Below the pieces are notes generated by a model, which had not been told where the DNA came from, ran no database searches, and saw only the letters and a program-made list of their open reading frames with translations. A program made the translations under genes and the position numbers. From Massalongia carnosa (taxonomy: Eukaryota): a DNA stretch of 64,000 bases. Of this stretch, positions 6,523 through 59,407 are shown piece by piece (the stretch's first letter is position 1; every line of letters begins with the position of its first letter). The DNA is taken from positions 1,240,001 through 1,304,000 of the forward strand of contig OZ287070.1 of the NCBI GenBank assembly GCA_965645245.1. The letters are read 5' to 3'.

Positions 6523-6530
6523 AGAGTCAT
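6523..6530 (-). promoter_or_regulatory. Possible Gcn4/CpcA site (ATGACTCT) about 640 bp upstream of HIS4
   Basis: TGACTC core upstream of an amino-acid biosynthesis gene; a short motif that could occur by chance. Confidence 0.2.
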
Positions 6531-27763: not shown

Positions 27764-28211
27764 TGTCATGAAATCGAACCAACCCGATCCAGAATCAATC
27801 CCGCAGATGAATCTGACTAAGCTCCCGTTCCTCTATTCAGCTTAGTCAGAATCTCATTAACTAAATCGAGTTTAGACCCCTCTCAACGGCTTCAGGTCAA
27901 AGCTGTACCATCACCATCAAAGCGTACCAACGACAGGAGAACCTCATCTCCACCTTTTATCGTCAAACACCTCGTCAAACCTTCGTGCCGTACGTCTCCT
28001 AATAGGGGGAGATGAACACTGATCGAATCTTCATGCAAAGGGGTTCGAGACAAATATAAAAGGAAGGACAAGTTAATTAGATAGTTGACTCCTTGTCCGA
28101 CGTCTTGTATAGCAATCCATCACCTAGCTATAGCCTTATTAATAAAGACATCTTGATCACCCAATCCAATTCCTAGGAACATTAGTTCAATCCCCTGCCC
28201 AGTCCTTGACA
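27764..28211. mobile_element. Solo LTR family A (448 bp), no matching TSD
   Basis: TGTCA...TGACA ends; near-identical inverted copy at 52582-53029; flanks TATGT and GTCTA differ. Confidence 0.88.
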
Positions 28212-29580
28212 GTCTACCTGCAAGACTACCTTTTGACCATCACTCAGACCAACTTTTGATCATAATTCAGATCCCTATTTTTCCACCTCCCATATCATCT
28301 TTTGTCCACCTGTCAGATATTCTTTTGTCTACCTGTCAGATCATCTTTTGTCTATCGCCCATATCATCTTTTGTCAATCGTCCATATCATCTTTTGTTAA
28401 TCGTCTTGACTAACTTCTGATCATCACCCAGACAATCTTTTGTCTACCACTAATAACCTTTTTTTCACATCTCTGGCTAAACTTTGTTCATCACCCAGAT
28501 CACCTTTTGTCTATCGTCTAGACCACCTTTTGACCACCTTTTGACTACTTTTTGTCCATTATCTAGACCACCTTTTGTCCACTACTAATATAACCTTTTG
28601 TCCACCTGTCAGGCCACATTTTGTCCACCTGCCAGACTACCTTTTGTGCACCCCTCATATCACCTTTTAAGCATCGTCCAGACCACCTGCCAGACCACCT
28701 GCCAGACCACCTTTTGTCTACCTGCCAGACTAACTTTTGTCTACCTGCCAGACCACCTTTTGTCCACCTACCAGACCACCTTTTGTCTACTTGTCAGACC
28801 ACCTTTGTCCATCCCTCATATCAACTTATGATCATAATCTAGACTACCTGCCAGACTACCTGCCAGACTACCTTTTATCCACCTGCCAGACCACATGTCA
28901 GGTCACGCACGTCCTGACATAAGCGAATCGGTAGTTATACCGATCTCCTATCTCCGACTAGGACACGGCTCGTGTTCGTATTCTTCTTTTTATTGTACCA
29001 ATCATAATCACTGTAATTAAATCAACGGACTCGCGACCCGAAGAAGTGGGGCTATAGGATAAAGACCTGATCGCCCACTTCTTTCAAGGGGTCACTGATC
29101 AATTTATTGATTTACCACTCTCTATTCGTATATTTATCACGAATCTATATAGTTGTCACGCTGTTAGACTTGACCCCTTACACCACCTTTTATCCACCTG
29201 CCAGACTGCCTTTTGTCTACCTGTCAGACCACATTTAGTCCATCCCTCATATCAACTTTTTATCATAATTTAGACGACCTGCCGGACCACCTTTTGTCCA
29301 TCACCTAGACTACCTTTTTTCTACCTGCCAGATCACCTTTTGTCTACCGCTAATATTACCTTTTGTCAATTACTTATATCACCTTTTGATTATCCTCTAG
29401 ACCACCTGCCAGACCCCTGCCCAACCACTTTTTGTCTATTACCCAGCCACCCAGACTACCTTTTGTCTATAACACAGATCACCTTTTTTCTTCCTGCCAG
29501 ACCATCTTATGTCTATCATACAGACCTCCTTTTGTCTATCACCCAGACCCCTTTTTGTCCACCTGCCAGACAACCTTATG
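28212..29580. repeat. Degenerate minisatellite, unit about 23 bp (CCAGACCACCTTTTGTCCACCTG) with 12-bp subunits
   Basis: Dozens of decayed units with C-to-T variants; interrupted by a solo LTR. Confidence 0.88.
28896..29182. mobile_element. Solo LTR (287 bp) inserted in the minisatellite
   Basis: TGTCAGG...CCTTACA ends; flanks CCACA and CCACC; the array resumes on both sides. Confidence 0.7.
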
Positions 29581-31088
29581 TCCCCCAACTAAAATCATTA
29601 ATAGTCAGTAATTAATGATAATTGAAATAAATTATGAAATATATGAAGCAGATGATGAAGTAAATAATAAAGTAGCTGTCATGGAATGACTGGGCACCTG
29701 CCAGTTAGTTCATTGAATCAACCTTAGCTGCTTGAACGAAGCACTAGCCGGTTAGCCGATCCGAAAGGAACTAAGCTTAATCCGGTTCAAAGGTAAGTGT
29801 TCCGACTATCAATAGTGTCATGGCGATAGTTTCATGCTAGGGACTTGGGGAAATTAGATCAACGGCTGGATTGGGACTAGTTCCGTTCGCCAGAGTCTTA
29901 TACTCGTCCACGTTGGATTTTCTGTTTCTTTTCTCGTTGTCGAACGTCTTGTCTACCTAGCTAGACAATCAAGTAACACGCTTGCACAACCTGAATTCCT
30001 ACCTGACCTCGCACCGGGACAGTAGCAACGCGTTAACAAAACAATAATAATATTGATATAATCGACACTAAACTACATCGAGTCAACGTTAAACCGAATC
30101 GAGGTTTTTTGCAAGTTCGTTAGAAGGACGGATTTAGCGCGGTTTTCGGGAACATCAAAACATGAAAACCTTACATAACGACAACCTCTCACGGCCTACA
30201 ACGGGCGTAAAAGAACGTAGTTTTCGCGATCCGGACTGATATCAACAGGATCAGTTGATCTCCGAAGTTTGACGAAGTAAAACGGTCCGGTACGGTGGAG
30301 GCAAGAGGGGAGTTTTTGGTCCTGTCCGCACGACGTCCTCTCCGCATTAAACTTTAATTCAGTACTATATAGATGTATTGTCAATATGGCTATATAACAA
30401 AGATAATATGTGTCGAGATATATATGTAGATATGTGAAAAGATATAAAGATGTAGATATGTAAAGGTATGATAATGTTACGTAGACGTACCCTGAATATA
30501 GCGGTGGCAACCCAGTAGACCTAGAGGATTGGCTAGAGCTAGGGATACGGTTATAGACTGTCACGAAATCAGGTCGAGGGCAAGGGCAAAGGCAAGGTGG
30601 GTTGATGGTCAAGCTTATTGATTGAGTCTATAGCTATGAATCTAGGCTAGGCTAGGTTGGCTATTCAAGACGTTCGACAAAGAATCAGAACTTCCATGAT
30701 TCGACTTCTTTCTTATATCTTTGTCCTCCCATATTCATCTTTCTAGGGTGGCGGCGAATGATGTCTAGTCAGTGCGATGATGAATGAGGGGCATTATAGC
30801 GGCAATAAGCACGATGGGGTCAGCGAGGAGACGGGAGATGTCAAACATCAATGCGAAGCTATTAGACATGATAATAGTCGAAAGACGGGAATAAATCATC
30901 AATGCGAGGCTGATTAATGATCAGTAATCGGCGAATTCGAAGAATGATATGAGGGTCCCGAAGGCATGGCACGACGTCCGTGAGTAGTCATCAGATCAAG
31001 GCACGTGATAGAGGCACGTGGTGAGGTCGGAGGCATTTCATGACAGTAGCTCCCCCTTCAAGGCAGAGCTCCTGCGATGCCATCTTAT

Positions 31089-34000
31089 CTATGCCTCGTG
31101 GCATTGGCAACGGGGAATTTGACAGGGGTTTAGATGAGGGCCGGCCGCATTGGGATAGGCTTGGTGGTATTCGTCTATGACTTGCTGACAATTGATGAGA
31201 TAGTTGAAAGGCTCCCAGGTGGAAGGATGCCCTTCCCAATCCACTAGGTATTTCAGAAGCGGGGGTTGAAAACGTCGGTCGAGCTTGGAATTCAATACCC
31301 TATTGACATACCATTCTCGTTGGCCATCTTCGGCGATGACGGGGTCTCTAGGCTCCGGTCTCTGCCCGGGGAGGGGGTCATTGGCATCATGCTGCAACAG
31401 ATTGACGTGAAAGACGGGATGGATTTTGACGGTATCGGGAAGCTCCAGCTGTACGATCAAGGGGTTGGAAAACACCTTGCTGACGCGGTAGGGGCCGATA
31501 TTTCGGTCATCCAGCTTGACTGTGGGGCGAGCGGTTTGGATATTTCTGGTGCTTAGCCACACCATATCGCCAACGAAATAGCGGGGGCAGGGACGTCGGT
31601 TAGCATTTGCAGTTGCTTCGTACGAAGCTTGGGCCATCAGCATTTCGTCTCGAAGATGAGTGTCGATATCCTGCATCTTATTCACGAACTGATTGGCTGC
31701 AACTAGGTTTGCTCTGCCCTGAGCGGTTAGGTCTTGCGGCAGGGGTTCCTCCGGTTCAAATCCCATGCGGGGATGTTGCCCGAAGTTGGCTAGGAAGGGG
31801 GAGGCCAGGATACTAGATGAATCGGTGTTATTGCTGGCGAATTCGGCGCCAGGAAGCCATTGTGCCCAGTCATCCTGCATGTAGTTGACATAAGCCCTTA
31901 GGTAGTGCTCCATGGTGGCGTTGGCTCGCTCGGTCTGCCCGTCGGTCTCCGGGTGGTATCCGGTGGATAGCTTGGCGTCGATTTTCAGCCTCTTGCACAT
32001 GAGCTGCCAGAAATCGGAGACGAATTGGGGGCCACGATCAGAAACCATGGCTTCGGGAAGCCCATGTAGTTTCCAGACATTCTGATAGAACGCATCGGCG
32101 GCGTCTTCAACTTCCATGGACGTGATAGGAATGAAATGTCGCATCTTGGACAGGCGATCTATAACCACCAAGATGTAGCGATAAGTGATTCCAATGAAGG
32201 TGCTGGGGGTCAGGGGGCCTACATAATCCATGGAAATATCCCGCCATCTGCGCTCGGGGGGGGGGAGTGGGCGTAGCCAGCCCTGATAGCGCTGGCGGGA
32301 TGGTTTTGATCTTCTGCAAGTGTGGCAGTTTCGGATAAATCGCTTGATGGACTGATGCATGCTGGGCCACCAGTAGGATCGATTTACCAACTCATGGCAT
32401 TTGGAACGGCCCGGATGTCCGCCGGCGACGCTATCGTGAGCGAGTTGAATGATACGAAGCCTCAGACGATCGGATCGAGGTACGTATTTCTTGTTTCGAA
32501 AATACAAGATACCGTCCCTATCTTCGCATTCGGCTAATTGGATTCGATTGTGATGCCTCTCGTTATTACGAAGGGCTTCCAGGACTTCGGGGGCGAATTG
32601 GTCTCGTGTCAGGGCTTGTTCCCAGAGGAGCTCCGTGGAGATATCCTCATCGGGATCGATGAGGTCCTCATCTAGCTGAGGTTCTGCTTCTTCGATATCT
32701 GCATCATCTAGGAAAGCTGGTGCCAGAAGAATGGATCGCAAATAACTTTTTGCGACTTCCTCATCCAGGTTTTCGGTTTTCAAAATGGTTTGGTGTTGAA
32801 ATTTCCTTCGCTCGTCCGTATCATCCCCTTCTTTAGGAAGATCTCCCGATCGACGAGTTAGAGCGTCCGGTTTTCCTCCGGCTTTTCCTGGTCGATAGAC
32901 TATCTTGAAGTCAAATCGAGAGAGAAATTCGCTCCATCTAGCTTGGCGACGGCTGAGCTGCTTGGTGGAGGCAAAATACTCCAGGTTTTTGTGGTCGGAT
33001 ATGACGCTGATGGGGAAGGCAGATCCTTCTAGTTCGGGTCGCCATTCTTCAAAACATCGAACGATTGCCATCAGTTCTTTGTCATAGATCTCGTAGTTGC
33101 ACTCGGCGGGATTGTGCTTCTTTGAGAAGTAGGCGACGGGGTGAAGTATCCCATCATCGTCGTATTGAGAAAGAATGCCCCCCGAAACATAGTCGGAGGC
33201 ATCGGTTTCGACGATGATGGGACGATCGGGGTCGAAATGCCTGAGAATGACATCGGAGGTGAAAGCTTTTTTCAGCATTTCGAATGCCAATTGGCATTTG
33301 TCAGTCCACAGGAATTCCGTCTCCTTCTTGGTCAGGTTGGTTAGGGGGCCAGCTATGTCGCTAAACCCATACACGAATCGTCTATAAAAGTTAGCAAAAC
33401 CCAGAAAGCTTTGCACATCTTTCACATTGACGAGGTTTGGCCAATTGACGACGGTTTCCACCTTGGCCGGGTCCATTTTTATCCCTTCGGTGGTCACGAT
33501 CATCCCTAGGTATGCAATTTCGGTGACATGGAACTTGCACTTGGTGATGTCGGCTTGCAGGCCTGCATCTCGGAGTCGAGACAGGATTTTTTTGACGTGG
33601 ACCTCGTGCTCCAGCTCATTGTCACTGTAGATGAGGATATCATCTAGGTACGCAGTGCAAAAGTCAGCAAGATACTCGTGAAGCGTATCGTTGATGAAGT
33701 GCTGAAATGAGGCGGGCCCGTTGCATAGGCCGAAGGGTAGGACCAAGGACTCGAAAAGGCCGAAACGAGTGCGAAAAGCGGTGAGTTCTTCGTCTCCTTC
33801 TCGTATGCGGAGCATATTGAAGGCGGCGATGATGTCTATCTTGGTGAATATCTTGGCTTTGATTAATTGGTGCAGGGTCTCGGCGATCAAGGGCAGCGGA
33901 TAGCGATCCTTAATCGTGATGGCATTCAGAGCACGATAATCCACGCAAAATCGAAGTCCCCCACCTGGCTTTTTCACGAACATCACCGGGGAGGCGGCGT

Positions 34001-35546
34001 GGGAGCGACTAGCCCGAATAAATCCCTTGGCTAGATTTTCGTCGAGGTAGCGGCGGAGCTCCTCGATTTCGGTACGACTCATACCATACAGGGCCTGACT
34101 AGGGGCCTGCGTACCTTCTTTCAGGTTTATGGCATGATCGTAGGGACGGCGGGGGGGCAAGTCTTCGGATTTCTTCTTCGAGAAGACATCTAGGAATTCG
34201 TGGTATTGCTTGGGCAGAAGGGGGGCTGGGTCGACGTTCTTACTTTCTCGGTAAGCGTCTAACTCTTCACGAGTCACGGCGGTGGCTAGGGTTAGGGCCT
34301 TATTCATCTTGAATAAGGCTAGGTGGATTTCTTTCTCGTGCGGGCTTGCTCGAGATGGCAATGGTTGGTAGGCTGGGCTGGGTTTTTTGGCTTTTTCGAT
34401 CAAATCGGGGGCTGAACTAGGTGAGGCTTTCATTACTAGAGGTTCGGGGTTGGTTTTTCCTAGAAAGAGGTCAATTTCTTTCATGGACAGGGCGAAACTA
34501 TCGTGGTTTTTCTTCCGAGTCAGTCGATTGAAGGAGATAGCTCCGATTTCGCAGACATTCATCTGCGGGGTGGTTTTGCGTGCTGCTTGATGAGCACGTC
34601 TTTGGGTGGATGTCCGCAATTTGGACGGGCTTCGGTATCGGATTTTCGGGGGGGGAAGCCCTTGCTGGATTGCATTTTCAATGCGACTGGGTTCATCGGT
34701 GGGGTTTTGAGGCTGGGGTTCGGGTTCATTGATTTCGGGTTTGATTAAGGTGAAATCGCGCGGCGCGGTTTTGAACAAAGGGATGGATTCCTCGATTTTG
34801 ACGGGATTGTCAGGAATGGAATTTTTGATTGTGGGAATTTCTTCCCCCTCTTCTAGAGAAGTTATCGACGTTCTGATAGACGTGTCTTGATTGATAACTT
34901 TTCCTAGGGCGTCTTCGAGGATCTCTTCATCCCAGATTTTTCGACTCTCGGCTGGGGTGAGGAATTCTTCCTCAACGGCTTGAAGCTTGACGGGGTGGGG
35001 GCAACAGTGAGTGAGGCAGTAGGGGGAGGCAAAGGTGAGCGTATTATGCCCAAAATCGGCTATGGCGTTATGCCGGCGGAGCCATGGATGGCCCAGGATA
35101 ATGGGATAATTTTTTAACCCGGTGACATATAGAAAGAGTTTTTCTACATGACCTTCTAGATCCATGGTGATTTCGGCCACATGAGTGATATTGCCGGATA
35201 GAGCCCTTTGGCCGTCGAATCCTTCGAGCCGGCGGGGATATTTGAGAAGATGAAGGGGAATTTGGTTAGTATGCGCAAATTTCTCATCGATGAATGAAAA
35301 GCCAGATGCACCACAATCAATTAGATTATACGTTCTAATCCTAGATCTAGATAATCGCAAGATACCTGTCATCACCATGTGACTGTCTCTGAACGTCTTA
35401 TCTGATTCAAACAGCTCCAAAGCGGAGGCTGCGGAAAATCGCGTATTGGATCTCAAAGAGGGGGAAAAACTGGCCATCAAACATGAGGAAATGAGAAGGG
35501 GGGGGAGTCCCTGCACGCGACGATGTGCAGAGACTAGGCTTTTCCC
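31089..35546 (-). CDS. pol: G1 Pol (protease, RT, RNase H, integrase, chromodomain), in the -1 frame relative to gag
   Basis: LIDCGAS, LRFCVDYR, YLDD, ETDAS, DHKNL, HHCC zinc finger, SDRG, TDGQTER, GPY, C-terminal WYVNRVL...YLVDWEG...WEP chromodomain. Confidence 0.95.
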   Translation of the reverse strand, partial: GKSLVSAHRRVQGLPPLLISSCLMASFSPSLRSNTRFSAASALELFESDKTFRDSHMVMTGILRLSRSRIRTYNLIDCGASGFSFIDEKFAHTNQIPLHLLKYPRRLEGFDGQRALSGNITHVAEITMDLEGHVEKLFLYVTGLKNYPIILGHPWLRRHNAIADFGHNTLTFASPYCLTHCCPHPVKLQAVEEEFLTPAESRKIWDEEILEDALGKVINQDTSIRTSITSLEEGEEIPTIKNSIPDNPVKIEESIPLFKTAPRDFTLIKPEINEPEPQPQNPTDEPSRIENAIQQGLPPPKIRYRSPSKLRTSTQRRAHQAARKTTPQMNVCEIGAISFNRLTRKKNHDSFALSMKEIDLFLGKTNPEPLVMKASPSSAPDLIEKAKKPSPAYQPLPSRASPHEKEIHLALFKMNKALTLATAVTREELDAYRESKNVDPAPLLPKQYHEFLDVFSKKKSEDLPPRRPYDHAINLKEGTQAPSQALYGMSRTEIEELRRYLDENLAKGFIRASRSHAASPVMFVKKPGGGLRFCVDYRALNAITIKDRYPLPLIAETLHQLIKAKIFTKIDIIAAFNMLRIREGDEELTAFRTRFGLFESLVLPFGLCNGPASFQHFINDTLHEYLADFCTAYLDDILIYSDNELEHEVHVKKILSRLRDAGLQADITKCKFHVTEIAYLGMIVTTEGIKMDPAKVETVVNWPNLVNVKDVQSFLGFANFYRRFVYGFSDIAGPLTNLTKKETEFLWTDKCQLAFEMLKKAFTSDVILRHFDPDRPIIVETDASDYVSGGILSQYDDDGILHPVAYFSKKHNPAECNYEIYDKELMAIVRCFEEWRPELEGSAFPISVISDHKNLEYFASTKQLSRRQARWSEFLSRFDFKIVYRPGKAGGKPDALTRRSGDLPKEGDDTDERRKFQHQTILKTENLDEEVAKSYLRSILLAPAFLDDADIEEAEPQLDEDLIDPDEDISTELLWEQALTRDQFAPEVLEALRNNERHHNRIQLAECEDRDGILYFRNKKYVPRSDRLRLRIIQLAHDSVAGGHPGRSKCHELVNRSYWWPSMHQSIKRFIRNCHTCRRSKPSRQRYQGWLRPLPPPERRWRDISMDYVGPLTPSTFIGITYRYILVVIDRLSKMRHFIPITSMEVEDAADAFYQNVWKLHGLPEAMVSDRGPQFVSDFWQLMCKRLKIDAKLSTGYHPETDGQTERANATMEHYLRAYVNYMQDDWAQWLPGAEFASNNTDSSSILASPFLANFGQHPRMGFEPEEPLPQDLTAQGRANLVAANQFVNKMQDIDTHLRDEMLMAQASYEATANANRRPCPRYFVGDMVWLSTRNIQTARPTVKLDDRNIGPYRVSKVFSNPLIVQLELPDTVKIHPVFHVNLLQHDANDPLPGQRPEPRDPVIAEDGQREWYVNRVLNSKLDRRFQPPLLKYLVDWEGHPSTWEPFNYLINCQQVIDEYHQAYPNAAGPHLNPCQIPRCQCHEA

Positions 35547-36676
35547 TGATCAATATCAGGGGCTTCGAGCTCCATGCTCCGAAGGTTGGTTCGCTTGTTG
35601 GGACAGTCAGTTGCTGACTTCCCTGGATGCTGCAATTTGCAGTAGAAACACAACTTCCAGTCTTCGCAGATTTTGCGGACCCCCTCGGTTTTGAGCGATT
35701 GGCCTTTCACCGCTGCCATGGCAGAGCTTAGGTCCATGGGGTCGCCAATGAGCAGCGCAGGGGAGGCGGGAGAAGCGACAGGTGCTTTGGCAGCGGGAGC
35801 GACTGTCGGGGGAAGTGCTGATAACGGGTTTGGCTTTTTCGGTGTCGGGGTGATAGTGGTGGTGTTCGCCTTTGGGGCAATGTGGCGGATCTGCCGAAGG
35901 CCACGATCTGTCTCCAACCACATGGTGACGTGCTCGTCGAAGGTGGTTGGTTGCCTTTGGGTTCCGGGGACCCTATACATTAGGGCTGCGGTCTGGGTTG
36001 AATAATTCACATTTGCCTTCATGGCATCGATCAGGCTGGCATCTTCCATCTTGGACCGGTCTTTTTTCTGCGCAAAAAGGTTGTAGTACTCCTCGAAGCT
36101 ACTACTTCCCTGTTTGAGGATATCGCGAAGGTATTTGCGAGCATCCTCCTGCTCGTAGGGATTTCCGCATGCGCGGCGGAGGGCTGATCGCCATTCAGCA
36201 AATGAGGTGAGTACGCAAAGGCCATCGACCCTGTACGCATTCATTAGGTTATGAGCCTTTTTGCCTATGGTGAGTCGGCTTTCGGCATAGGCAATTTTGG
36301 CTTGATCGAACGGGTATCGATCATTGTTGACATGCATCCTTTGAATCAGGGACTGCTCCCACGCATCCAGCTTGACTTCTTCGCCCTCATACTCCGTGAT
36401 GTCCGGGAGCTTTTCGGAGCGGATGAGGGAGTTTTTTGACGCCAGGAGCAGCTGCATCATGGCCATGATTTGCGGATCCAAGGTAGGGGGGGGTGGATTT
36501 GAGATAGGTATGGGCTCGGAAATAGAAGGGGTATTGGCATTGTTGCGAAGTTGGTTTACTTCGGCTTCTAGGTTGTCCATTTGACTCAGGAATTGCTGAG
36601 GGTCTGCCTGAAGACGTTCCTGAATGAATCGAATACGCTTATCCAGCTCGGAGAGGTTCTCTTCTGCTGAAGACAT
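35534..36676 (-). CDS. gag: G1 Gag
   Basis: RSEKLPD, LKQG...Y major homology region, DPMDLS, Cys/His knuckle CFYCKLQHPGKSATDC. Confidence 0.92.
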   Translation of the reverse strand: MSSAEENLSELDKRIRFIQERLQADPQQFLSQMDNLEAEVNQLRNNANTPSISEPIPISNPPPPTLDPQIMAMMQLLLASKNSLIRSEKLPDITEYEGEEVKLDAWEQSLIQRMHVNNDRYPFDQAKIAYAESRLTIGKKAHNLMNAYRVDGLCVLTSFAEWRSALRRACGNPYEQEDARKYLRDILKQGSSSFEEYYNLFAQKKDRSKMEDASLIDAMKANVNYSTQTAALMYRVPGTQRQPTTFDEHVTMWLETDRGLRQIRHIAPKANTTTITPTPKKPNPLSALPPTVAPAAKAPVASPASPALLIGDPMDLSSAMAAVKGQSLKTEGVRKICEDWKLCFYCKLQHPGKSATDCPNKRTNLRSMELEAPDIDQGKA

Positions 36677-37959
36677 GATTGAGGGGGAATGAGATAAAGG
36701 GAGATGAGGGAAAATGCTATGGAAGGCACTTTTGAATGTTGGTCGAACGTAATGTCACGAAATCAGGTCGAGGGCAAGGGCAAAGGCAAGGTGGGTTGAT
36801 GGTCAAGCTTATTGATTGAGTCTATAGCTATGAATCTAGGCTAGGCTAGGTTGGCTATTCAAGACGTTCGACAAAGAATCAGAACTTCCATGATTCGACT
36901 TCTTTCTTATATCTTTGTCCTCCCATATTCATCTTTCTAGGGTGGCGGCGAATGATGTCTAGTCAGTGCGATGATGAATGAGGGGCATTATAGCGGCAAT
37001 AAGCACGATGGGGTCAGCGAGGAGACGGGAGATGTCAAACATCAATGCGAAGCTATTAGACATGATAATAGTCGAAAGACGGGAATAAATCATCAATGCG
37101 AGGCTGATTAATGATCAGTAATCGGCGAATTCGAAGAATGATATGAGGGTCCCGAAGGCATGGCACGACGTCCGTGAGTAGTCATCAGATCAAGGCACGT
37201 GATAGAGGCACGTGGTGAGGTCGGAGGCATTTCATGACATAGACAAGATAGAGGACGTGTCAACCTTTCTGACCAATCACATGGATTCAGGAAGGATAAA
37301 AAGACTGTATTCTGTATCTGGGAAATTCCCACCTCTAGCTACCTATATAGAAGGGAAAAGGGGTCATGGCGGCAACGATATCAACCCCGGCAAATTGAGG
37401 GGTGAATATAGGAAAGAAATGGCGTAGTCTTAGCGGCATCTGCCGCGACAGGGGGTCGAGGATCGGCGATGAGAATCGACCGCATTTAGGTTTGACAGGA
37501 CGTCATATGACTAGGGGCACGCTAGTCTGGATCGAGATACCAATTGACCGCCAAGACCACTAGGGTGACTATGGCTAGGTCACCAGTGACCACTTGGTCA
37601 CCAGTGACAATGGCTTAGATAGTAATGACTACTTGGTCACTAGGAGTCATACTTAGCAGTGACTAGTACTGAGACCCCCAGCACCAATCATGTATATAAG
37701 GAAGCCTATCTTCCCCTTAGCTAAAGTCCTCGCGGTTAACTCACTAGTAATCCAGAAGGGGATATTCCAGATAACTCTAACCCAGTTTATACTTGATTGC
37801 CCATGCACCTCTACTGACTATAGAGACGTTGCACTGCCGTTACAGATAGTGCCGGAGAAAACGACAGCAAAAAGCTCCTTATATCCCGACTCTCGGCCGC
37901 ACAGGCCTGTCCTGTCACCTGATCATCTATATAGCACGTGTAAACCCACCACAGTATCA

Positions 37960-38845: not shown

Positions 38846-39259
38846 TGTAAAGGTTCGACCAAGCGTGGTGCGGAGGTCAGGACCTACAGCAAACATAGCT
38901 GATGGTGGCGGCGATAAGGTGGAGCAATAAGTGAACCAGTGGATGTAATCGTTCTAGCGATAAGAGGGTATAGTGGAGTGAGGAGATTGGTGGAGTAGAG
39001 TAAAGGGTTTATTCAGACTCATACCGAGGATAAATCTGAATAGGCTTTCAGGTGGCTTTTACCTCGATCGCCGCTTGGCGGCTCGGGGTAATCAATTAGG
39101 TTTTAACTCAAACTTTATTTCATGAGAGTACTCGTGTGGCCCAGAAGTCTGTCGTTTCCTTTTTAGGTTAGCGTTCTACAAGGGGGTTTAACCAATAGAA
39201 TCGTTTTTTTATTCCCCGTATTTCCCACCTAACTGATCAAATCGAAGCATTTTTTTTGT

Positions 39260-39821
39260 TATGACGAAGCGAGATAGTGAATAGATTTCTACCATTGCGC
39301 CACCTGTCCTTCCCGACTAAAAGGCACAATACTTAGTCCGCAGACCAAGCTCTATTCTACTATAACTGGGACTCCTGCTATGTTCGCTGTAGGTCCTGCC
39401 GTCCGCACCACGTATGGTCGAACCGTTACACTACCGCCCGTATAGCTGCGGCTAGCCTCTAGCCGCTTCCAGTTATAGTTAGCCCCGAAGAATGGGCTCT
39501 TCTTAGCGTACGGCCCTCGTTGATCCGACTTAGAGAGTTTTCATCCGACGCTTTCCCGTTTCGTCTTAGCTTCAATCCGTCGAAGCAAGGCGAAAAAGCG
39601 GGTCAGGAATCGAACTCACGACAAGTACACCGATTGATGACTAAGTATTCTGTGACGAAGCGAGATAGTGAATAGATTTCTACCATTGCGCCACCTGTCC
39701 TTCCCGACCAAAAGGCACAATACTTAGTCCGCAGCCCAAGCTCTATTCTACTATAAGTAGAACTCCTGCTATAATCGCTGTAGGTCCTGCCGTCCGCACC
39801 ACGCATGGTCGAACCGTTATA
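39260..39821 (-). mobile_element. TRIM (miniature non-coding LTR retrotransposon): two 171-bp LTRs plus a 220-bp internal domain
   Basis: LTRs at 39260-39430 and 39651-39821; TSD TTTGT; purine-rich tract GGGCGGTAG before the 3' LTR; PBS complementary to its own LTR. Confidence 0.9.
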
Positions 39822-41525
39822 TTTGTCAACTAATCATCATCATAACTTCAACTTTTGCTTTTATATGTCAGTACTATAGTCCTTCTATTTCTTATATCAT
39901 ACTCACTTACTAGGGTACCCGAACAATTTTCCGATCTCTAATCGCCGCCCTTAATGCGACGATCGAGTCGTATTTTTACTTTATTTGAGCGACAGCGTCC
40001 CCGAGATAGGAATTGCAATGATAGATCAAGCGATAAGTTTAGGCTGACTTAAAACGAGTCAGGATAAGGATTTTTTTCAGCAGAGATTAGAGAATAGTCA
40101 GGAAAGAATCGAGGGGAAAATTGTTCATATAGAATTAATTGAATGGAATAAAGAGGGAGGCATGTATTCAAGAGGAATTGTTTCGATTCTCCAAAATGCA
40201 GCGCCATAATTTGGTCTTCCATTCAGCAGAAAGATACTCTGCTCAGTCTTTTAACTCGGAAGAACTCTATGCATTTGTCAGAAATTCTCGTGCCTTCTTC
40301 TAAGCGTCATTTCCAGCCCCTCGAATTTTCAACAATTCGGGTATCAATCGTCTTTTTTCACTGGCCGACAACCCCTCGATAACGTTAAATCTGGAGAAGT
40401 AGCCGGCCAATCTACTTTGAAGATGCCTCGTTTCTCTCGATTCTTCTTGTATTGCTTAGCAGTCTCGGTGTAAGATGGTACGTTGTCTTCAATTAATCAT
40501 ACCTTTTTGTCAGGATAGGCCCTTTGAGCCTCTTTAAAGAATAGGTATAACAGAGGCAAAATGACCTTATTCCTATAAAGAATTGCGTCTATTCCGTTCT
40601 TCTTACCCCGACGTTCGAGGCCTTCATATTTGAACAGTATTTCGGGAGTAAATTTTATTTGTCGACCTTTGTTTCCGTTGATCCCACCTATTCGAAAATT
40701 TTCGTTATGTAACTCAACTGCGAAATTCTTGTCCTGAATTTGTTAGCAATTCTTAGTCATTCCGTGGAGATTTCTTACTTGAAGAAGTCGATATTCGGAT
40801 ATTCCGGGAATGATGACATTCTTTCTTTAATCTTTCACCTTTTTCACTGAAAGCTCATTTGCTTCCTTCAATTTCAATCCATTCAGGTATTTTTCCTCTT
40901 TGGTCTCTGCCTTCCAGAGATAATGAGGCCCTATCATACCTTTACTAGTCACTGATCCCTATTGCATAATTTTGAACTGAAAAGGAGGCTTGGGAGCCGC
41001 AAGCTTATAAGGATTCGTACCTTTTACAATAGAAATCTTGCGTTTTTTCCCTGAGGGCCAGCCCCCAATTTCATGCCAGGCCTCGTTACTATATATAAAG
41101 ATATCATTATCGTCAATTCGATCCGAGGCCTATTTACCAAGTCTTTTTCTGTGATTATCTATCTTGTTAATAAGAAGAGTATTAAAAGGCTGAACAACTT
41201 ATACGCTTTCCTTAACAGTCTTTCCGTCAATAACACGCTTATGCTGATGCTAAAAACGTTTAATAATCGAACGTGCTTGACGTTTATTTCGAGGTATGCC
41301 AGGAATAGTGATGTTTTCTTTATCCAGAACGGCTTGCTAAGGTCTATCATCGGGATTTTGAAGAATCGCCATCCGAATCATTGTTGAAAGGTCTGTATTA
41401 TCTGCTACTCTTGACACCCGACCGGACCGTTCCATGACGCTAATATAGGCCAAGACCTTATGAGAATCCTTATATCTAGCTTGTTTTATAACTCTTTTCA
41501 TAAGCGTCTGAGCTGTGCCCCTGAC

Positions 41526-41696
41526 TGTGACAAAGCGAGATAATAAATAGATTTCTACCATTGCGCCACCTGTCCTTCCCGACCAAAAGGCACAATACTT
41601 AGTCCGCAGACCAAGCTCTATTCTACTATAACTGGGACTCCTGCTATGTTCGCTGTAGGTCCTGCCGTCCGCACCACGATTGGTCGAACCGTTACA
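41526..41696 (-). mobile_element. Solo LTR of the TRIM family
   Basis: Same 171-bp sequence; TSD CTGAC/CTAAC (one G-to-A change); interrupts the Tc1-like transposase. Confidence 0.9.
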
Positions 41697-42264
41697 CTAA
41701 CTACTCTAATCTTCTGCTCTATCTCGAAGTAGGTGCAACCGAAAATAATTCTACAAGTAACTATAGCGTATCGAAGCTTATAAGTAACCTCATGACCAGC
41801 TTTATCATTCATATTGTGAATAATTATTGAAGTTTACATTATATAGATAAGGATATTCAGATTCGATAAGGGAAAAAAGCGATTAGAGAGGTTTGTTTAT
41901 GTCTGCCAAGACGCGCTAAACTAAAAAGGAAACGATAGACTTCTGGGCCACACGAGGAGTATAGTGGGTAAAAGAGTACACAATTTAGTAGTTAAATTAT
42001 AAGATGATCTATCTAGGTGGGCCTAATACCACATTATATAGATCAGTAGGCATAGTCGAGGTCGAGTTTTTTCAGCACTCTGCCAACTATGCCAACTATA
42101 GGCAGATGTTCCTCCGTGGGCTTAGAACTTCCATAGCCTGGCACGTCCTACTAGTTATCGCTTTATAGTATAACCGTGTTCAGTACCGCTGAGTCATTAT
42201 GCTTAGTAATAATCAGTCTTATACGGCGGCGCTGTAACAATTACACTACATATAGGTGCCCCGC

Positions 42265-45200
42265 TGTGACGAGGCGGCAACGGGGGGGCCTTTTCAGGTG
42301 GTGAAGGTGGTGGCATTGCTAGCTATGACTATACTAGATAGACAAGACGAACACAAGGAAGAAAGCACCAATTGCTGCAGAGATTTTCCATGTTACTCCC
42401 GGAACCCATTTCCTTACCTGAATGCGGTTAGCTCCCTACTAAGGCTAACGCGATACCTAAAACATTTAGCGTGTCGGGAGGTATCGCTTAGTAGAGCATC
42501 TCGCGCTCACACCATGACAGTAGCTCCCCCTTCAAGGCCTGCTTCCACGCAGGCTTTATAGCTTCAGGACGGTGTGAGCTATCGTGGCTTGGCTGGGTAT
42601 CGTTGATGAAATTCTGCTACCCTTTCCTTGGCGTTAGTAACATACTCAGCATACTCCCAGGTGGGGTCGTTCCAGCCCGTCCATTGCACCAGGTACTTTA
42701 GGCGGGTTCGAAATTTCTTGGAGTCGAGAATTTCTTCAACCTCGTATTCTTCTTCGCCTTCGACTTCAACAGGTGGTGCGGGAGGGGGGATGTGATCGGG
42801 ATGAGGGTGTTGCGGCACGGGCCGGGGGGCAGCTCGAGTTGATACGCATATTGGCTTACCACCTTAGATATCTTGAATGGACCCAGATTTTTCCAGTCGA
42901 GCTTTCGAGCAGGTCTTTGAGTACGGATGTTCTTAGTACTCAACCATACTTCGTCTCCTGCTTGGTAACTTGGTGCTGGTACACGATGTTCATTGGCTCC
43001 AGTCTCGTACCTGGCTTGCGCGAACTTCATCTCTTCCTGTAGCACGGACGAGATATCTTGCATCTTCTTGGCGAACTCCCCTGCGTTTAGACTGGCTGGG
43101 GATCGAGAGGGCTCAACCGATTCGAATCCCATTCTCGGATGAAATCCCATCTCGGCCAGGAATGGGCTGCACCCAGTCGTCTCGGACACTACATTGTTCC
43201 CTGTGAATTCTGCCATGGGTAACCAACTTGCCCAATCGTCTTGAAGATAGTCCGTGTAGCTTCGGAGGTATTGTTCCATGGAGGCGTTTACTCGCTCGGT
43301 TTGACCGTCCGTTTCTGGATGGAAGGCCGTTGATAACAGGCTCTTGATACCCAGTAGTTGACAGAGCTTTTTCCAAAATTCCGATACAAAGAGCACTCCA
43401 CGATCCGATACTACGGTGCTCGGCAACCCGTGTAGTTTCCAAATATCTCGAAGAAAGAGTTCAGCCAGTTCCTGAGCATTGATCGTGGTGAGGCATGGAG
43501 AGAAGTGCCGTCGTTTCGATAGACGATCGACCACCACTAATATGGCGTCGAACCCACTACTTTCTGGAAGCCCAGTCACGAAGTCCATCGAAATATCTTG
43601 CCAGCGGCGCTCCGGGACGGGTAACGGTTTCAAGACTCCCATTTTTCCTTGACGAGAGGGCTTGCTTCTTGCACAAACTTGACAATGTTGCACGTACCTT
43701 GCTACGAACTGATAGAATCGTGGCCAGTAATAGTGACGTTGCAGAAGATCAAAGGTCTTGGCTCGACCGGGATGACCGGCTACAGGGCTATCGTGAACGG
43801 ACTTGCAAAGTCTCATCTTCAGGGCGTGTGAGTCCGGAACGTATATCTTTCCTCGATAGTGCAGTCGGCCATCCATCTCTGTGCACTCTGCCAGCGAGAT
43901 TTCCTTGGATTGTCTAGCACCTGATCGTAATAATTCCAGAATTCTCATCGGAAAGAGGTCCTTTTCCAATGCTTCTTGCCATAATTCTTCCAAGGTCTTG
44001 ATTTCATCCTGATCTGAGGCGATTTCCAGAGGTTCACTTTGTTCCGAGGCTTCAACATTTTCTTCGAGAGGTTCATCTGCTAATCCGTTCGCTAGAGGTT
44101 CAAGATTTCGAGGTTTCAAGACCACTTGATGTTGAATTTTTATCCGTGGATCATCCTCCCCCTTCGGTAGGTCTTGAGACCTTCTAGTCAGGGCGTCGGG
44201 TTTTCCACCGCTTTTCCCTGGGCGGTACATAATCTGGAAATCGAAGCGGGAGAGATACTCGGACCAGCGTGCTTGACGACGACTGAGCTGTTTCGTTGTC
44301 ATGAAGTATTCGAGATTCTTATGATCAGAAATGACTTGAATGGGAAAGGCGGCTCCTTCGAGCTCGGATCTCCATTCCTCGAAAGCTCGAATGATGACCA
44401 TGAGTTCCTTGTCATAGATCTCGTAATTGATTTCCGCGGGGGCGTGTTTTTTCGAGAAGAAGGCTACAGGGCGTAGAACTCCCTCGTCATCGTACTGTGA
44501 GAGTACACCCCCCACTACCCAGTCGGAAGCGTCAACTTCTACCACGATTTTCTTTTCAGGATCGAAATGCATCAGAATGAGATCGCTAACAAAAGCGTTT
44601 TTTTAGCCTTTGAAACGCGGCCTCACACTCGGAGTTCCAAGAGAACACGGTCCCCTTTTTCGTCAGTTTGATCAGGGGCGAGGCAATGGCTGAGAAACCC
44701 TTGACGAAGCGTCTATAGAAATTTGCGAAGCCCACGAAAGCTTGAATATCCTTAATGTTCTTGGGTGTTATCCAGTCCTTGATCGTCTGAACTTTTCGTG
44801 GGTCCATCTTGATTCCTTTGTCCGAAATGATAAGTCCCAGGTAAGTGGTTTCCGTGACGAAGAACTCACACTTTTCTATGTCCAGTTACAGACCTGCGGA
44901 CCTCAGAGCTTCAAGAACCTTTCTTACGTGAATCTTGTGTTCCTTCTTTGATTTACTGTATACAAGAATGTCGTCGATATAGGCGGTGCAAAAGGCATCT
45001 AAATATTCTCGAAGGACGTCGTTGATATAGTGCTGAAAGGAGCCGGGCCCCCCTGAAAGTCCGAAAGGCAATACTTCATATTCGAAGAGACCGTACCTGG
45101 TCTTGAAAGCGGTCATCCATTCTTGCCCGCTCTGCATTCGTAGCTTATTGAAAGCCGCGATGATGTCAAACTTAGAGAAAATCATGGCCTTGGCAAGACG

Positions 45201-48080
45201 ATCTAGTGTTTCTTGAATCAGTGGTATTGGATAGCGATTCTTGATCGTGATCGCGTTCAGAGCTCGATAGTCTACACAGAAACGCAGTCCTCCCGACGGT
45301 TTTCGGGCGAATAACACGGGCGAGGAGCAGGGCGAGGAGCTGGCACGAATAAATCCTTTGGCTAGGTTTTCTTTCAAGTATTTCTGCAAGACTAGTAGTT
45401 CAGGAGCTGACATCTTGTACAGCGGGCCTGACGAGGGTATGGCTCCTTCCTTGAGAACGATTTTATGATCGTAGGAGCGGTGCGGGGGTAGTTTATCGGC
45501 TTCTTGCTTGGAGAAGACGTCTAGAAGATCGTGAAATTCCACGCGCACTATACTGGCGGGATCGATGATTTTCTTGGGCTTCAAGGACTTGGCGATATCT
45601 TCGAGGGACGAGGCGGAGAGATTGAATTTCTCTCTCGGATTTCTGAGTTGTTCAAGGGCTTTGTCAATTTCATACATGGAAGCGGTGAAGATTTCGTTCT
45701 TCCGGTCCTTCATCAGGGTCGAGAATGGAGCGGCTCCAACCATGTAAATACTCATAGGTGAGGGATCGGGAGATTCCGTGCAGACCGTCATTGGTCGTGC
45801 GTTCGAGATCGGTGGCTCAAGAAGTGTTCGGGATTCAGGACTTGAAAGAGCGTTTAATATACTGACTTCGAGAGTTCTAGGAGTCGAGCGAGAGACCTTG
45901 TTCTCACTGACTTTCAGGGTTTCAGGAGTTTTCATACAAGAGACCTCGTTCTTGCGTGATTCGACGGTTTTCAAGGACAGGGACGAAGCGGACTCAGGAG
46001 TCCCTTCAGATGGATCAGGAAGGCCAGAAATGACAAGAGGGACGTGTTTATTCTCTAAACACTCCTGGAAACAGTACGTGGACGAGAAGGTCAGGGTATT
46101 TTCAGTCCAGCTGACGGAGGGGTCATGAATTTGAAGCCACTTGAGTCCCAGGACGACAGGATAATGACCCAGTTGGGTAACTAAGAACGAGCCTTGCTCG
46201 GAATGACGGTTTATTCGCATCCTTGACTTGATCAGATGAGTAAGTTTTCCGGCCGCCGCGGGGCGACCATCGACTACTTCGAGGATACGAGGACGGACAA
46301 GAGAGGTGAAAGGCAGGGAATTGTTTCGCGCGAAGGATGAATCAATGAATGCGTAGCCCGAGGCACCGCAATCAATCAAAGCATGGGTGTGTATAACTCG
46401 ATTTTCCACAGAGAGTGCTATAGATATGACACAATGTCTACCGTCTAACGAATCTTCTGAGAGAGAAAAGGCTGAAATCGACACAGGGACCCCTTCTGAA
46501 CGTCTTCGGGGGCGACTTAGCCCGAAGACGACGCGTTTTCCGAGACCTCAGCTAGAGAGGACTCGTTCAGCCGAGAGGTTCGCGGCTTGGTTTCTCCCTT
46601 TCGAGGGCAGACGGCCGCAAAATGTCCTGACCCCCCACAATAGTGGCACAACCCTTCGTTCATCCGACGGGTGACTTCTGCTTGAGGTAACTTACCTCTG
46701 TGTGTGGCGGAGAGGTCCATTGGCTCGGCGGCCGGAAGGGGAGACGGGGAGGCGGCGGAAGAAGAGACGGATCGGGGGAGGGCGACTCCTCCCGACCGGG
46801 GGTTATGAGGGGGGGTCCCCACACCAGAAGAAGGTGGGGTGGACCGGGGGGAGTATGGCTTCCGGAGGGAAGCATTGACATTCCGTTGGCGGGTGTCTAG
46901 CCGTTGGAGGAGAGTCACTAGTTCGTCGAGGTCCTCGGGAGTGATTTGGGTAAGCATGAGCTGCTTCAGCTCGTCACTGATGCCTTCCAGCAGAGCTGAG
47001 CGCATTGCCTCCTCGTCGAAATTGGTATCCGGGGCAATACGCTGGAAGTCCGAGAGGTAGACATGGAATTCCTTGTTGGCCTGGCGCAGGGACCGCAGTT
47101 CCCGCTGTGCCGTGGCCTTTTTGTCCGGGTCCCCAAAGGCCCTCTCCAACATAGCCAATAACCCTGCCACATCGGGGATACTCACTTCGTTGTGAGACTT
47201 GACGTAGGGTTGCCCTTGCGCCATGGCACGACCCTCTAAGCGGCTGATGGCGTACAGAAGACCGGCTTTGGGATTCGTGAAACGGTCTTGATTCACAAAG
47301 AGCTTCAGGTTAAGCTGGGTGACCCACTCGCGCAACTCGTCCTTCTTGCCCGAGAACTTCGGGATGTCCGGCAATTTCTCTGAGCGCGCCTCGCGCTGGG
47401 CAGCGGGATAATAATGATGGTCACTGATCTGCTAACGGAGGCTGGCGACGGTGGCTCGAGAGGCGATGTTCTCGTTATTGGAGGTCTGCAACTGGCTACG
47501 GATATTATTATGCTCAGCTTCCAGAAAGTCATACTGATTTGATTTTTCCGTTAGAAAGCCCTGAAGGGTCGCTGATCGGTTGGCGGACTGAATGGCTTGA
47601 TGATACCATTCATGAGGGAATTTTTGGACCGATTGACTCCAGGCCTCAATAGATGCAACATGAGGGGCGAGAGAATCTTCGTCATCGAAGCTTGGGGGGG
47701 GAAGGCCAGGACTTGATTCGGAACGGGGCGTGGCTATCTTGGACGAGGAACTGGAAGCCATACTAAAGAGGTGAATGAGAAACGAGGAACGGAGCACCAC
47801 CTGAACACAGGTGAGGTGTTCCTAATGTGACGAGGCGGCAACGGGGGGGCCTATTCAGGTGGTGAAGGTGGTGGCATTGCTAGCTATGACTATACTAGAT
47901 AGACAAGACGAACACAAGGAAGAAAGCATCAATTGCTGCAGAGATTTTCCATGTAACTCCCGGAACTCATTTCCTTACCTGAATGCGGTTAGCTCCCCAC
48001 TAAGGCTAACGCGATACCTAAAACATTTAGCGTGTCGGGAGGTATCGCTTAGCAGAGCATCTCGCGCTCATACCATGACA
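42265..48080 (-). mobile_element. Decayed Ty3/Gypsy chromovirus (element G2)
   Basis: 255-bp LTRs at 42265-42519 and 47826-48080 with about 7 differences by eye; TSD CCCGC; same PPT as G1. Confidence 0.95.
42579..47761 (-). pseudogene. G2 gag-pol, disrupted
   Basis: In-frame TAG at 47432 in gag, TAA at 44886 in RT, A-run frameshift near 44600, deletion near 42820; motifs CHYCGGSGHFAAVC, LIDCGAS, YIDD, TDGQTER and chromodomain EYEVEEIL...YLVQWTG retained. Confidence 0.92.
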
Positions 48081-48216
48081 CCCGCGCCTGGTAAGTAGGG
48101 CTCCGAAAATTTCGCTCTTTTGACAAGATGACACGAAAACTTCATCACGTGCTGACATGGACCCTGAATTTTTGGAAATTAATTACCTAAGCACACATAA
48201 CTTATACGACAATTAG

Positions 48217-48898
48217 TTGCCTCAGTACCTCAGACGTGCCCGGCTAAGCCCCTTCGGGTTAGCCTTACAGAACGTTAAGCCCCTTCGGGTTAACAGGCTG
48301 ACTACGCAGCACATCTGTAGCAAGTCTGAGCCCAAAACTCAAGATTACGGTCAGATATGGCTTAACGATCATGACAAGAACGATTTCGACCTTATAGTAC
48401 AACGTCACAACTTCATTGTTTTCATGTTTGTACGTCATCGTCGCTTGATATGATCATGATCAATGTATTTTTGATTTTTTCGTTATAAATTTCAATCTTT
48501 ATTTATGTTTATAACGTGCAGAGCAATTTTACATACATCTTGTTATTTTCGTTAAGTCGATTCTCGATTTTTATGCGAAGTGCAATCAGATTGCCCCCAC
48601 ATGAACTTTACAACGAATAGGAATTTCAGAAAACCTTCTATACAAATTCTACTTGAATTCTTTCGAAGAAATAGCCCGTGTCAAATGAAAAAGCAAGACG
48701 TCAAAATGTCGAAAAATCGCAATAATACACGATGTATTACGAATATCTGACCGTAATATTTAGTTTTGCGCTCAGACGTGCTATCGCAGCCACGTTAGTC
48801 AGCTGGGACGCTAATCCGAAGGAGCTTAGCTAAATAGGCTAACCCGGAGGGGCTTAGACGGCTCCTAGAACCCACGCACGTCTGAGGTACTGAGGCAA
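48217..48898. mobile_element. 682-bp non-autonomous TIR element nested in the hAT 5' region
   Basis: 23-bp perfect TIR extending to about 140 bp of imperfect inverted repeat; 8-bp TSD ACAATTAG; AT-rich non-coding core. Confidence 0.92.
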
Positions 48899-52516: not shown

Positions 52517-53243
52517 TGTTGAATATCCAATTCCTACCAGCACAATGAACACCTATCAGTACGATGAACATAGCACCTACGTGTCAAGGACTGGGCAGGG
52601 GATTGAACTAATGTTCCTAGGAATTGGATTGGGTGATCAAGATGTCTTTATTAATAAGGCTATAGCTAGGTGATGGATTGCTATACAAGACGTCGGACAA
52701 GGAGTCAACTATCTAATTAACTTGTCCTTCCTTTTATATTTGTCTCGAACCCCTTTGCATGAAGATTCGATCAGTGTTCATCTCCCCCTATTAGGAGACG
52801 TACGGCACGAAGGTTTGACGAGGTGTTTGACGATAAAAGGTGGAGATGAGGTTCTCCTGTCGTTGGTACGCTTTGATGGTGATGGTACAGCTTTGACCTG
52901 AAGCCGTTGAGAGGGGTCTAAACTCGATTTAGTTAATGAGATTCTGACTAAGCTGAATAGAGGAACGAGAGCTTAGTCAGATTCATCTGCGGGATTGATT
53001 CTGGATCGGGTTGGTTCGATTTCATGACACTACGGCTGCCCTAGATGGACAGATCATCTACGGAAACCGTAGATGCCGCATTAGGCTTAGTACCAAGATA
53101 AGATAAGATCACCTCGCTTAGAAGGGGGTGACCAGTAATAGGAAAAGATTGCTGCCTAGCAACTCTTTATCCTTAATATCGCGGTCATATATACCTTTAT
53201 TAATACATAGCAATATAGCTATAGTCATACACCTATTTCAACA
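52517..53243. mobile_element. Copia-like solo LTR family B (TGTTG...CAACA) carrying a nested family-A LTR
   Basis: TSD AAAAG; an uninterrupted inverted copy lies at 59124-59407. Confidence 0.88.
52582..53029. mobile_element. Solo LTR family A (448 bp), inverted relative to 27764-28211
   Basis: TSD CTACG; near-identical reverse complement of the first copy. Confidence 0.92.
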
Positions 53244-53458
53244 AAAAGCTTGCTGATATCGTTGTTCAGAAGAAAGAAATCCTTATCGTTCGAGATATAA
53301 GACATAATTATCTATATTGTATTATAGAAGGGTAAATACGGAAGTAGATCGTCAAAAGCGTGCTAATACGGCTAAACAGAAGAAAATATTTCTCAATGAA
53401 AAAGCGATAGTTAAACGGTTTGGCTTGGTAGATAAAAAGGCCGAAAGCTAGAGAGATA

Positions 53459-53629
53459 TGTGACGAAGCGAGATAGTGAATAGATTTCTACCATTGCGCC
53501 ACCTGTCCTTCCCGACCAAAAGGCACAATACTTAGTCCGCAGACCAAGCTCTATTCTACTATAACTGGGACTCCTGCTATGTTTGCTGTAGGTCCTGCCG
53601 TCCGCACCACGCTTAGTCGAACCGTTACA
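53459..53629 (-). mobile_element. Solo LTR of the TRIM family
   Basis: 171 bp; perfect TSD AGATA. Confidence 0.92.
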
Positions 53630-59123: not shown

Positions 59124-59407
59124 TGTTGAAATAGGTATATGACTATGGCTATATGGCTATGTAATAATAAAGGTATGTATGACCGTGATGTTAAGAATGA
59201 AGAGTTGCTAGGCAGCAATCTTTTCCTATTACTGGTCACCCACTTCTAAGCGAGGTGATCTTATCTTATCTTGGGACTAAGCCTAATGCGGCATCTACGG
59301 TTTCCGTACAACTAGATGATCTGTCCATCTAGGGCAGCCGTAGGTGCTATATTCATTGTACTGATAGTTAGGTGTTCATTGTGCTGGTAGGAATTGGATA
59401 TTCAACA
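59124..59407. mobile_element. Copia-like solo LTR family B at the right edge of the island
   Basis: TGTTGAA...TTCAACA; flanks TGTTC and AGTTC; reverse-complement match to 52517-53243. Confidence 0.88.

Follow-up and report, generated by a model that had tools for sequence, protein, structure and literature searches.

A 562-bp non-coding LTR element of Massalongia carnosa with a probable Tf1-type self-priming signal

The self-primer of Tf1 consists of the first 11 nt of its own RNA. In published accounts of the Tf1/sushi chromoviruses such self-priming is presented as a common feature of the group (PMC10085805, PMC4600332, PMC5341516), many members of which are described from fungi (PMC10085805, PMC4600332, PMC6934838), and Tf1 itself is reported to require a three-duplex RNA "pretzel" (PMC10085805). 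TRIMs are defined as LTR elements below 1 kb in length having terminal repeats of 100-250 bp, a tRNA-type PBS and a PPT (PMC6934838). The PBS of plant TRIMs is given as that of tRNA-Met and the PBS of the ant PbTRIM as that of tRNA-Leu (PMC3532108, PMC6934838). In the paper on bivalve TRIMs self-priming was raised as one possibility only, and no such signal was found there. As for fungi, the Helenus TRIMs are described as having tRNA-like LTRs and PBSs matching tRNA anticodon loops, and Helenus/TRIMp3 (Kojima, 2024) is stated to be known from Pucciniales and a few Agaricomycetes (PMC10886601). A survey of transposable elements in lichen fungi gives one TRIM family in its table, with no detail (PMC8773270). 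Full-text searches of openly accessible papers turned up no self-priming TRIM or other non-autonomous self-priming LTR element.

The window analysed here is a stretch of 64,000 nt of Massalongia carnosa DNA. A two-LTR unit of 562 bp occupies positions 39260-39821 of its minus strand, and sequence reading, a repeat finder, BLAST within the window and coordinate checks agree on its extent. The features of the unit and of its immediate borders are the following:

39255-39259, no strand: left TSD TTTGT (coordinate check; empty-site contigs in the public runs X2, X4 and X5)
39260-39430, minus strand: 3' LTR (LTR1), 171 bp (repeat finder, BLAST), with the outer terminal CA changed to TA
39328-39338, minus strand: copy of GACTAAGTATT in the 3' LTR, at the predicted start of R (repeat finder, coordinate check)
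39431-39441, minus strand: ACGGGCGGTAG, polypurine-tract-like, 8 of 11 bases purines, abutting the 3' LTR
39431-39650, minus strand: internal domain, 220 bp, between both LTRs
39639-39649, minus strand: putative PBS AATACTTAGTC, one base (G, 39650) past the terminal CA of the 5' LTR
39651-39821, minus strand: 5' LTR (LTR2), 171 bp (repeat finder, BLAST), with the outer terminal TG changed to TA
39719-39729, minus strand: putative self-primer GACTAAGTATT, LTR positions 93-103, the predicted first 11 nt of the RNA
39752-39755, minus strand: TATA motif, starting 26 nt upstream of the point where the RNA putatively begins
39822-39826, no strand: right TSD TTTGT (coordinate check)

The two 171-bp LTRs, the TSD TTTGT and the 220-bp internal domain are all where the initial annotation had placed them. 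It had also described the internal domain as having no ORF. Four ATG ORFs of at least 20 aa overlap the element; since the longest, of 67 aa, begins in U3 ahead of the predicted RNA start, that description is fair. Only the minus strand gives a sensible element, with ACGGGCGGTAG abutting the 3' LTR and the PBS following the 5' LTR. In BLAST within the window the internal domain matches only itself. With 562 bp in total (below 1000) and LTRs of 171 bp (between 100 and 250), the unit falls within the size range of TRIMs, and its layout is also theirs, the internal domain opening with the PBS and ending with the PPT-like ACGGGCGGTAG. Similarly to the classic TRIMs of plants, ants, cestodes and bivalves, it has a short non-coding core, a 5-bp TSD, solo LTRs and multiple copies. 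Unlike in them, the PBS matches the element's own LTR, and no TGG (the complement of CCA) can be read from the sequence in the 12 nt after the 5' LTR. With Helenus/TRIMp3 it shares being a fungal TRIM with a 5-bp TSD and a non-canonical PBS; in contrast to Helenus, no tRNA-like or 5S-like sequence is detectable in it (ARAGORN default and -ps; Rfam at E <= 10).

The LTR ends are of the TG..CA type, and both outermost dinucleotides are mutated in this copy. The mutated termini lie in the parts that are not copied, that is U3 of the 5' LTR and U5 of the 3' LTR; those that the RNA would regenerate in the progeny of the TRIM are still TG and CA. LTR1 and LTR2 differ at 10 of 171 positions (94.2% identity; 7 transitions and 3 transversions), which exceeds the 6 and 7 differences between LTR1 and the two solo LTRs of the window and thus indicates an old copy; the private changes of LTR2 cluster in U3. 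The element at 39260-39821 is a decayed, old TRIM copy.

The feature that sets the element apart is found at its PBS. Read on the minus strand, AATACTTAGTC (39649-39639) is, as the initial annotation had it, exactly complementary to GACTAAGTATT at 39729-39719; the same site recurs at 39338-39328, and 11 of 11 bases pair at an offset of 1 from the LTR end. When the LTR was shuffled with dinucleotide composition preserved and the complementary stretch had to start 0-4 nt after the LTR end, none of 5000 shuffles reached 11 nt of complementarity, and with a 12-mer allowing at most one mismatch the value of the TRIM was reached by one shuffle in 1000. The same complementarity test gives nothing in the opposite (plus-strand) orientation. 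The complementarity between the PBS and the LTR of the TRIM is far beyond chance. The TATA-like motif claimed at about 25 nt ahead is also present, as TATA at 39755-39752, with its first base 26 nt upstream. No tRNA genes are found within the window.

The primer site is invariant in all four full LTR copies of the window, where 16 of 171 columns vary, and none of the variants listed for the contigs of four public runs (X1, X2, X4 and X5, described below) falls in the PBS or in either primer site. Nine majority differences are listed in the 220-nt internal domain, so that only about 0.45 changes would be expected by chance in the 11-nt PBS and its invariance shows no constraint. There is no covariation between primer and PBS, neither site varying in the copies and contigs examined. 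A loose end of X1 behind 39310 hints at a possible LTR subfamily with another primer site; its five contigs, of median 15 nt, are too thin for covariation.

The arrangement resembles that of Tf1 in several respects. The PBS immediately follows the 5' LTR, and its complement lies within the same LTR, at the predicted 5' end of the RNA. This complement is 11 nt long, as is the Tf1 self-primer, the LTR ends with CA just before the PBS, and the TSD is 5 bp. Unlike the Tf1/sushi elements, the TRIM has no gag or pol and shares no sequence with either of the chromoviruses in the window. Since it encodes nothing and offers no protein for placement, it is filed here not in the Tf1/sushi clade, only as working like one of its members.

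The RNA was folded from 39729 with leaders of 110 nt and 170 nt. For both, the MFE and centroid structures contain the 11-bp duplex of primer and PBS, extended by two pairs into the CA of the LTR; the pair probabilities are 0.80-0.996, and this is the dominant predicted RNA duplex in the leader. The z-scores of the whole leaders are modest: the 110-nt leader folds at -30.2 kcal/mol (z -2.06; 5 of 200 shuffles fold as well), and the 170-nt leader has a z of -1.76 (9 of 200). Two flanking duplexes between PBS-adjacent sequence and the LTR are no better than in shuffles (fractions 0.189 and 0.797 of 1000). Compared with the Tf1 pretzel, only the central duplex, with its 2-bp extension, is thus predicted for the TRIM.

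Three further pieces of the same LTR family are present in the window:

38846-38899, plus strand: 54-nt fragment corresponding to the first 54 nt of the LTR at 89-93% identity, in the opposite orientation (repeat finder, BLAST)
41526-41696, minus strand: solo LTR of the same family (BLAST), flanks CTGAC/CTAAC, matching at 4 of 5 positions
53459-53629, minus strand: solo LTR of the same family (BLAST), perfect TSD AGATA

Outside the window, part of the 562 bp occurs in 15 public runs from 13 studies. The best of these runs contains 0.65 of the sampled words, one is labelled as a lichen metagenome, and none is recorded as RNA. Contigs of X1, X2, X4 and X5 were aligned to 39100-40000 at a likeness of at least 85%; their flanks differ from the window at many positions, and these runs therefore do not represent the window's own strain. 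The internal domain is tens to hundreds of times deeper than the flanks in the four runs. In X1 its summed depth is 214,579-426,107 vs. 1,697-7,621 in the flanks, a summed contig depth being no copy number. In X4 one internal contig of 143 nt has a depth of 3834.5, with 27-30 for contigs of 3-44 kb and 146 for a flank contig, and in X5 an internal contig reaches 115.6 vs. 10.8-13.4 for flank contigs. Up to 38 distinct contigs cover one internal-domain position in X1, which together with the depth figures suggests tens to hundreds of copies of the TRIM family.

The architecture, too, is found outside this locus. Contigs bridge the internal domain, the PBS and the 5' LTR in X1 (record 8, 39602-39728) and X5 (record 30, 39522-39679), and the junction of the 3' LTR with the internal domain in X2 (record 15, 39347-39469). 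Since both LTR-internal junctions are bridged, the architecture belongs to the family and is not an accident of this locus. A one-off deletion, which the initial annotation had named as a reading that would undo its own, is ruled out by the depth of the internal domain in four runs, and the bridging contigs bear on it in the same way. The loose-end contigs at LTR edges number 18, 8, 8, 32 and 10 in X1, with an agreement of 0.42-0.51, and over the four runs the agreement at LTR edges is 0.42-0.58 wherever more than one contig is listed, which means many different flanks. The empty site is seen in X2, X4 and X5, each of which has a contig passing straight from 39253 to 39822, with a single T in a T run as the only imprecision; the joints listed for X1 do not include it. 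The TRIM went in as one unit, as evidenced by its TSD and by the empty-site contigs in three of the four runs. Two independent solo LTRs are ruled out, the inner LTR flanks not being TSDs and the empty site lacking the whole 562 bp.

Nearly all contigs read another letter at 39442, 39458, 39520, 39521, 39547, 39566, 39575 and 39623, and the window copy carries private changes in its internal domain. Nine extra bases follow 39600 in X4, X5 and one X2 contig, and none do so in X1. One contig each of X1 and X2 has the LTR end joined directly to the LTR start (39430/39651) and lacks the internal domain, which amounts to a tandem LTR-LTR or two-LTR-circle-type junction somewhere in the genomes of these runs. 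The pattern of LTR end, PBS and leader and a 23-nt LTR pattern gave 0 matches each in metagenome contigs, and there were 0 matches in prokaryote genome contigs and viral contigs. That the family was mobile had been concluded earlier from the solo LTRs at 41526 and 53459; their flanks (CTGAC/CTAAC, 4 of 5; AGATA), the many flanks in the public runs and the empty site in three of four of them agree with that conclusion. It is very likely that 39260-39821 belongs to a TRIM family that is mobile and multi-copy.

Other LTR elements are clustered around the TRIM, two chromoviruses among them:

30559-37239, minus strand: chromovirus A, intact, 487-bp LTRs 100% identical, TSD GTCTA
42265-48080: chromovirus B, older, 255-bp LTRs 97% identical, TSD GCGGG, pol split into several frames

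Chromovirus A lies 2 kb from the TRIM and appears very young. Its gag and a pol frame of 1486 aa are open, and PR, RT, RNase H, IN, a Tf2-1-type SH3 domain and a chromodomain can be recognised. Its PBS ACGTTCGACCAA (36750-36739), two bases past the 5' LTR, is complementary at 11 of 12 positions (9 perfect) to an LTR site at 36875-36864, 36-39 nt after TATAA. While 19 of 5000 shuffles reach 9 perfect nt, none of 1000 reaches 11 of 12. The PBS:LTR duplex is in the MFE fold of its leader, which overall is not unusually stable (z -0.52). No self-primer complementarity is found in chromovirus B, the value of which is reached by 1476 of 5000 and 835 of 1000 shuffles in the two tests. Its PPT region is nearly the same as that of chromovirus A. 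Thus, counting the signals of the TRIM and of chromovirus A, two of the three two-LTR elements in the window have a self-primer-type PBS, and since chromovirus A has a PBS-LTR complementarity of its own, self-priming looks like the local norm.

Neither chromovirus qualifies as direct parent or partner of the TRIM: BLAST finds no similarity of A or B to the LTR or the internal domain of the TRIM (E <= 1e-3), and PBS and PPT differ. No coding element with the LTRs of the TRIM is present within the window. Chromovirus A would be the right type of helper, yet it shares no sequence with the TRIM. Nearer to the TRIM, contigs of X4 and X5 that match the window up to 39130 run on into sequence resembling the reverse complement of the PPT region of A and B, which suggests that the sequence running up to about 39127 is the margin of one more chromovirus LTR, a truncated one. 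Adjoining it is an inverted repeat of 43 nt (39131-39173 vs. 41914-41956, 95%).

These observations suggest the following cycle. Transcription by RNA polymerase II would begin at 39729 or close to it, in the 5' LTR and 26 nt downstream of the TATA motif, and the first 11 nt of the RNA are predicted in silico to pair back with the PBS, from which the LTR is separated by one base. By analogy with Tf1, the RNase H of a helper chromovirus would cut after nucleotide 11 and release the self-primer, from which minus-strand DNA synthesis could then start. From there the ordinary LTR cycle would take over, with strand transfer via R, ACGGGCGGTAG as the site of plus-strand priming and an integration that leaves a 5-bp TSD, and all proteins would be supplied in trans by an autonomous self-priming chromovirus. 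Self-priming is the best-supported mechanism for the TRIM and a probable one, on the grounds of sequence statistics, folding and analogy. For the account as a whole, that is a TRIM family member priming from the 5' end of its own RNA with a chromovirus as helper, moderate confidence seems appropriate. What stands firmly of the minimal self-priming parasite of chromovirus machinery proposed initially is a non-coding two-LTR unit, multi-copy, with a complementarity beyond chance; the parasitism itself has no more than the strength of this account.

Self-priming would be retained even if the TRIM were not an independent lineage. In that case the 220-bp core would come from an autonomous self-priming chromovirus with the same LTRs, whose 5' leader and 3' end it would combine, and the short copies would have come about via deletion or read-through. 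Such a parent would account for the LTRs being deeper than the internal domain, by a factor of about 4-5 in X1 and of up to about 20 in X4. It would also account for the half of the internal domain on the PPT side being 5-9 times deeper in X2 than the half on the PBS side; this fall along the domain, from 123,013 to 13,135, might reflect a portion that the domain has in common with another element. On the other hand, X1 and X4 show a roughly even depth along the internal domain, the loose ends and joints listed include no recurrent one inside it, and the loose ends at the LTR edges are heterogeneous in the way flanks are, instead of leading into one alternative internal sequence. As the window also has no coding element with these LTRs, derivation of the core from such a parent is considered unlikely.

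The primer could in principle be an RNA of the host. This might be the 3' end of a tRNA or, as in the Helenus and Copia elements of fungi, a piece from inside a tRNA, and the match to the own LTR would then be incidental. Precedent speaks for such a primer, since tRNA PBSs are what is described for classic TRIMs (PMC6934838, PMC3532108) and anticodon-loop fragments for most of the fungal Helenus TRIMs (PMC10886601). An incidental match is difficult to reconcile with a complementarity that 0 of 5000 shuffles reach, and with the same self-complementary design in chromovirus A, built there from a different sequence. A tRNA 3' end is further disfavoured by the lack of TGG in the 12 nt after the LTR, and an anticodon fragment by inspection of the 11-mer and its complement, neither of which could be fitted by eye to an anticodon stem-loop having U33 and a purine at 37. 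Priming by a host RNA is therefore quite unlikely.

It has also to be asked whether the pairing of the 5' end with the PBS, if real, is there for something other than priming, for example to cyclise the RNA for packaging or dimerisation or to form a silencing hairpin, with priming by another route. The predicted fold leaves some room for this, as of the Tf1-type duplexes only the central one is predicted and the flanking ones are not above chance. Yet the complementary stretch lies exactly at the PBS position, one base past the terminal CA, its 11 nt equal the length of the Tf1 self-primer, and the TRIM offers no other candidate primer site. A purpose other than priming is accordingly given a very low probability.

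Least of all is to be said for a tRNA-derived TRIM of the RNA polymerase III type, resembling Helenus, which we reject as hardly credible: tRNA-bearing TRIMs do exist in fungi according to PMC10886601, and an A-box-like TGGCGCAATGG in U5 (39693-39683), a B-box-like AGTTCGATTCC in the leader (39616-39606) and a T5 run (39597-39593) stand in the right order on the element strand, but ARAGORN finds 0 tRNAs by default and with -ps (its 4 hits in 701 nt at the 70% threshold are noise, with 217 in the whole 64 kb), Rfam at E <= 10 has no tRNA or 5S match, and the motif counts are near chance, with 17 A-box-like sites window-wide vs. 19.4 expected and 8 B-box-like sites vs. 3.6, which makes a single B-box-like site unremarkable. 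Moreover, if polymerase III stopped at the T5 run, neither R nor the PPT would be on the transcript, and reverse transcription could not yield a full copy from it.

Returning to self-priming with a chromovirus helper, its novelty had been overrated initially, for self-priming is a published common feature of the Tf1/sushi chromoviruses and the neighbouring chromovirus A is alike. The PBS signal of the TRIM is what is expected of a non-autonomous derivative that keeps a known cis signal of self-priming chromoviruses. Since self-priming is the rule in the parent group and is also seen in chromovirus A, the finding is a variant of known biology. A bolder reading, which we hold tentatively and with slightly more doubt than belief, is that of a natural minimal self-priming retroelement, whose RNA of about 400 nt has in cis all that Tf1-type priming requires, present in tens to hundreds of copies across several related, apparently lichen-associated fungi, and the first TRIM family shown to do without a tRNA primer. 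If this were true, the RNase H and RT of the helper would act in trans, recognising the self-primer duplex on an RNA that is foreign to the helper and has no sequence in common with it. TRIMs are usually recognised, and sought by software, via a tRNA-type PBS; a self-priming family would be missed or misclassified by such pipelines, and the TRIM content of fungi could consequently be underestimated. In addition, a TRIM of 562 bp whose self-primer is only 11 nt long would provide a compact natural substrate for asking what the RT and RNase H of self-priming chromoviruses recognise, including in trans. Beyond that the TRIM opens no new question, being the expected derivative of a well-described mechanism.

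Several other features of the window may be mentioned. The whole retrotransposon cluster lies between the two arms of a 448-bp inverted repeat of 99.8% identity (27764-28211 and 52582-53029), which are separated by about 25 kb. Its adjoining sequence is also repeated (53030-53246 / 59121-59343), further copies lying near 59.1-59.4 kb, and the inverted repeat represents either an inverted duplication or one more repeat family. Just upstream of chromovirus A, at 28200-29600, a 23-nt unit (ACCTTTTGTCCACCTGCCAGACC-like) is repeated in tandem to form a long and degenerate array, which has a strong skew of C over G. A 214-bp unit at 12676-12889 matches both ends of a 682-bp unit at 48217-48898 (100% and 98% over 107 bp each), the latter having inverted ends (48211-48358 vs. 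48904-48743), and the two look like a MITE and a longer relative. The frame at 7963-9933 fuses phosphoribosyl-ATP pyrophosphohydrolase and histidinol dehydrogenase domains, a fusion that we take to be of the fungal HIS4 type and that would thus suggest a fungal source. In a protein atlas this frame led to bacterial histidinol dehydrogenase clusters only, which is uninformative about the host. The run labelled as a lichen metagenome, which holds TRIM sequence, would fit a lichen-associated host.
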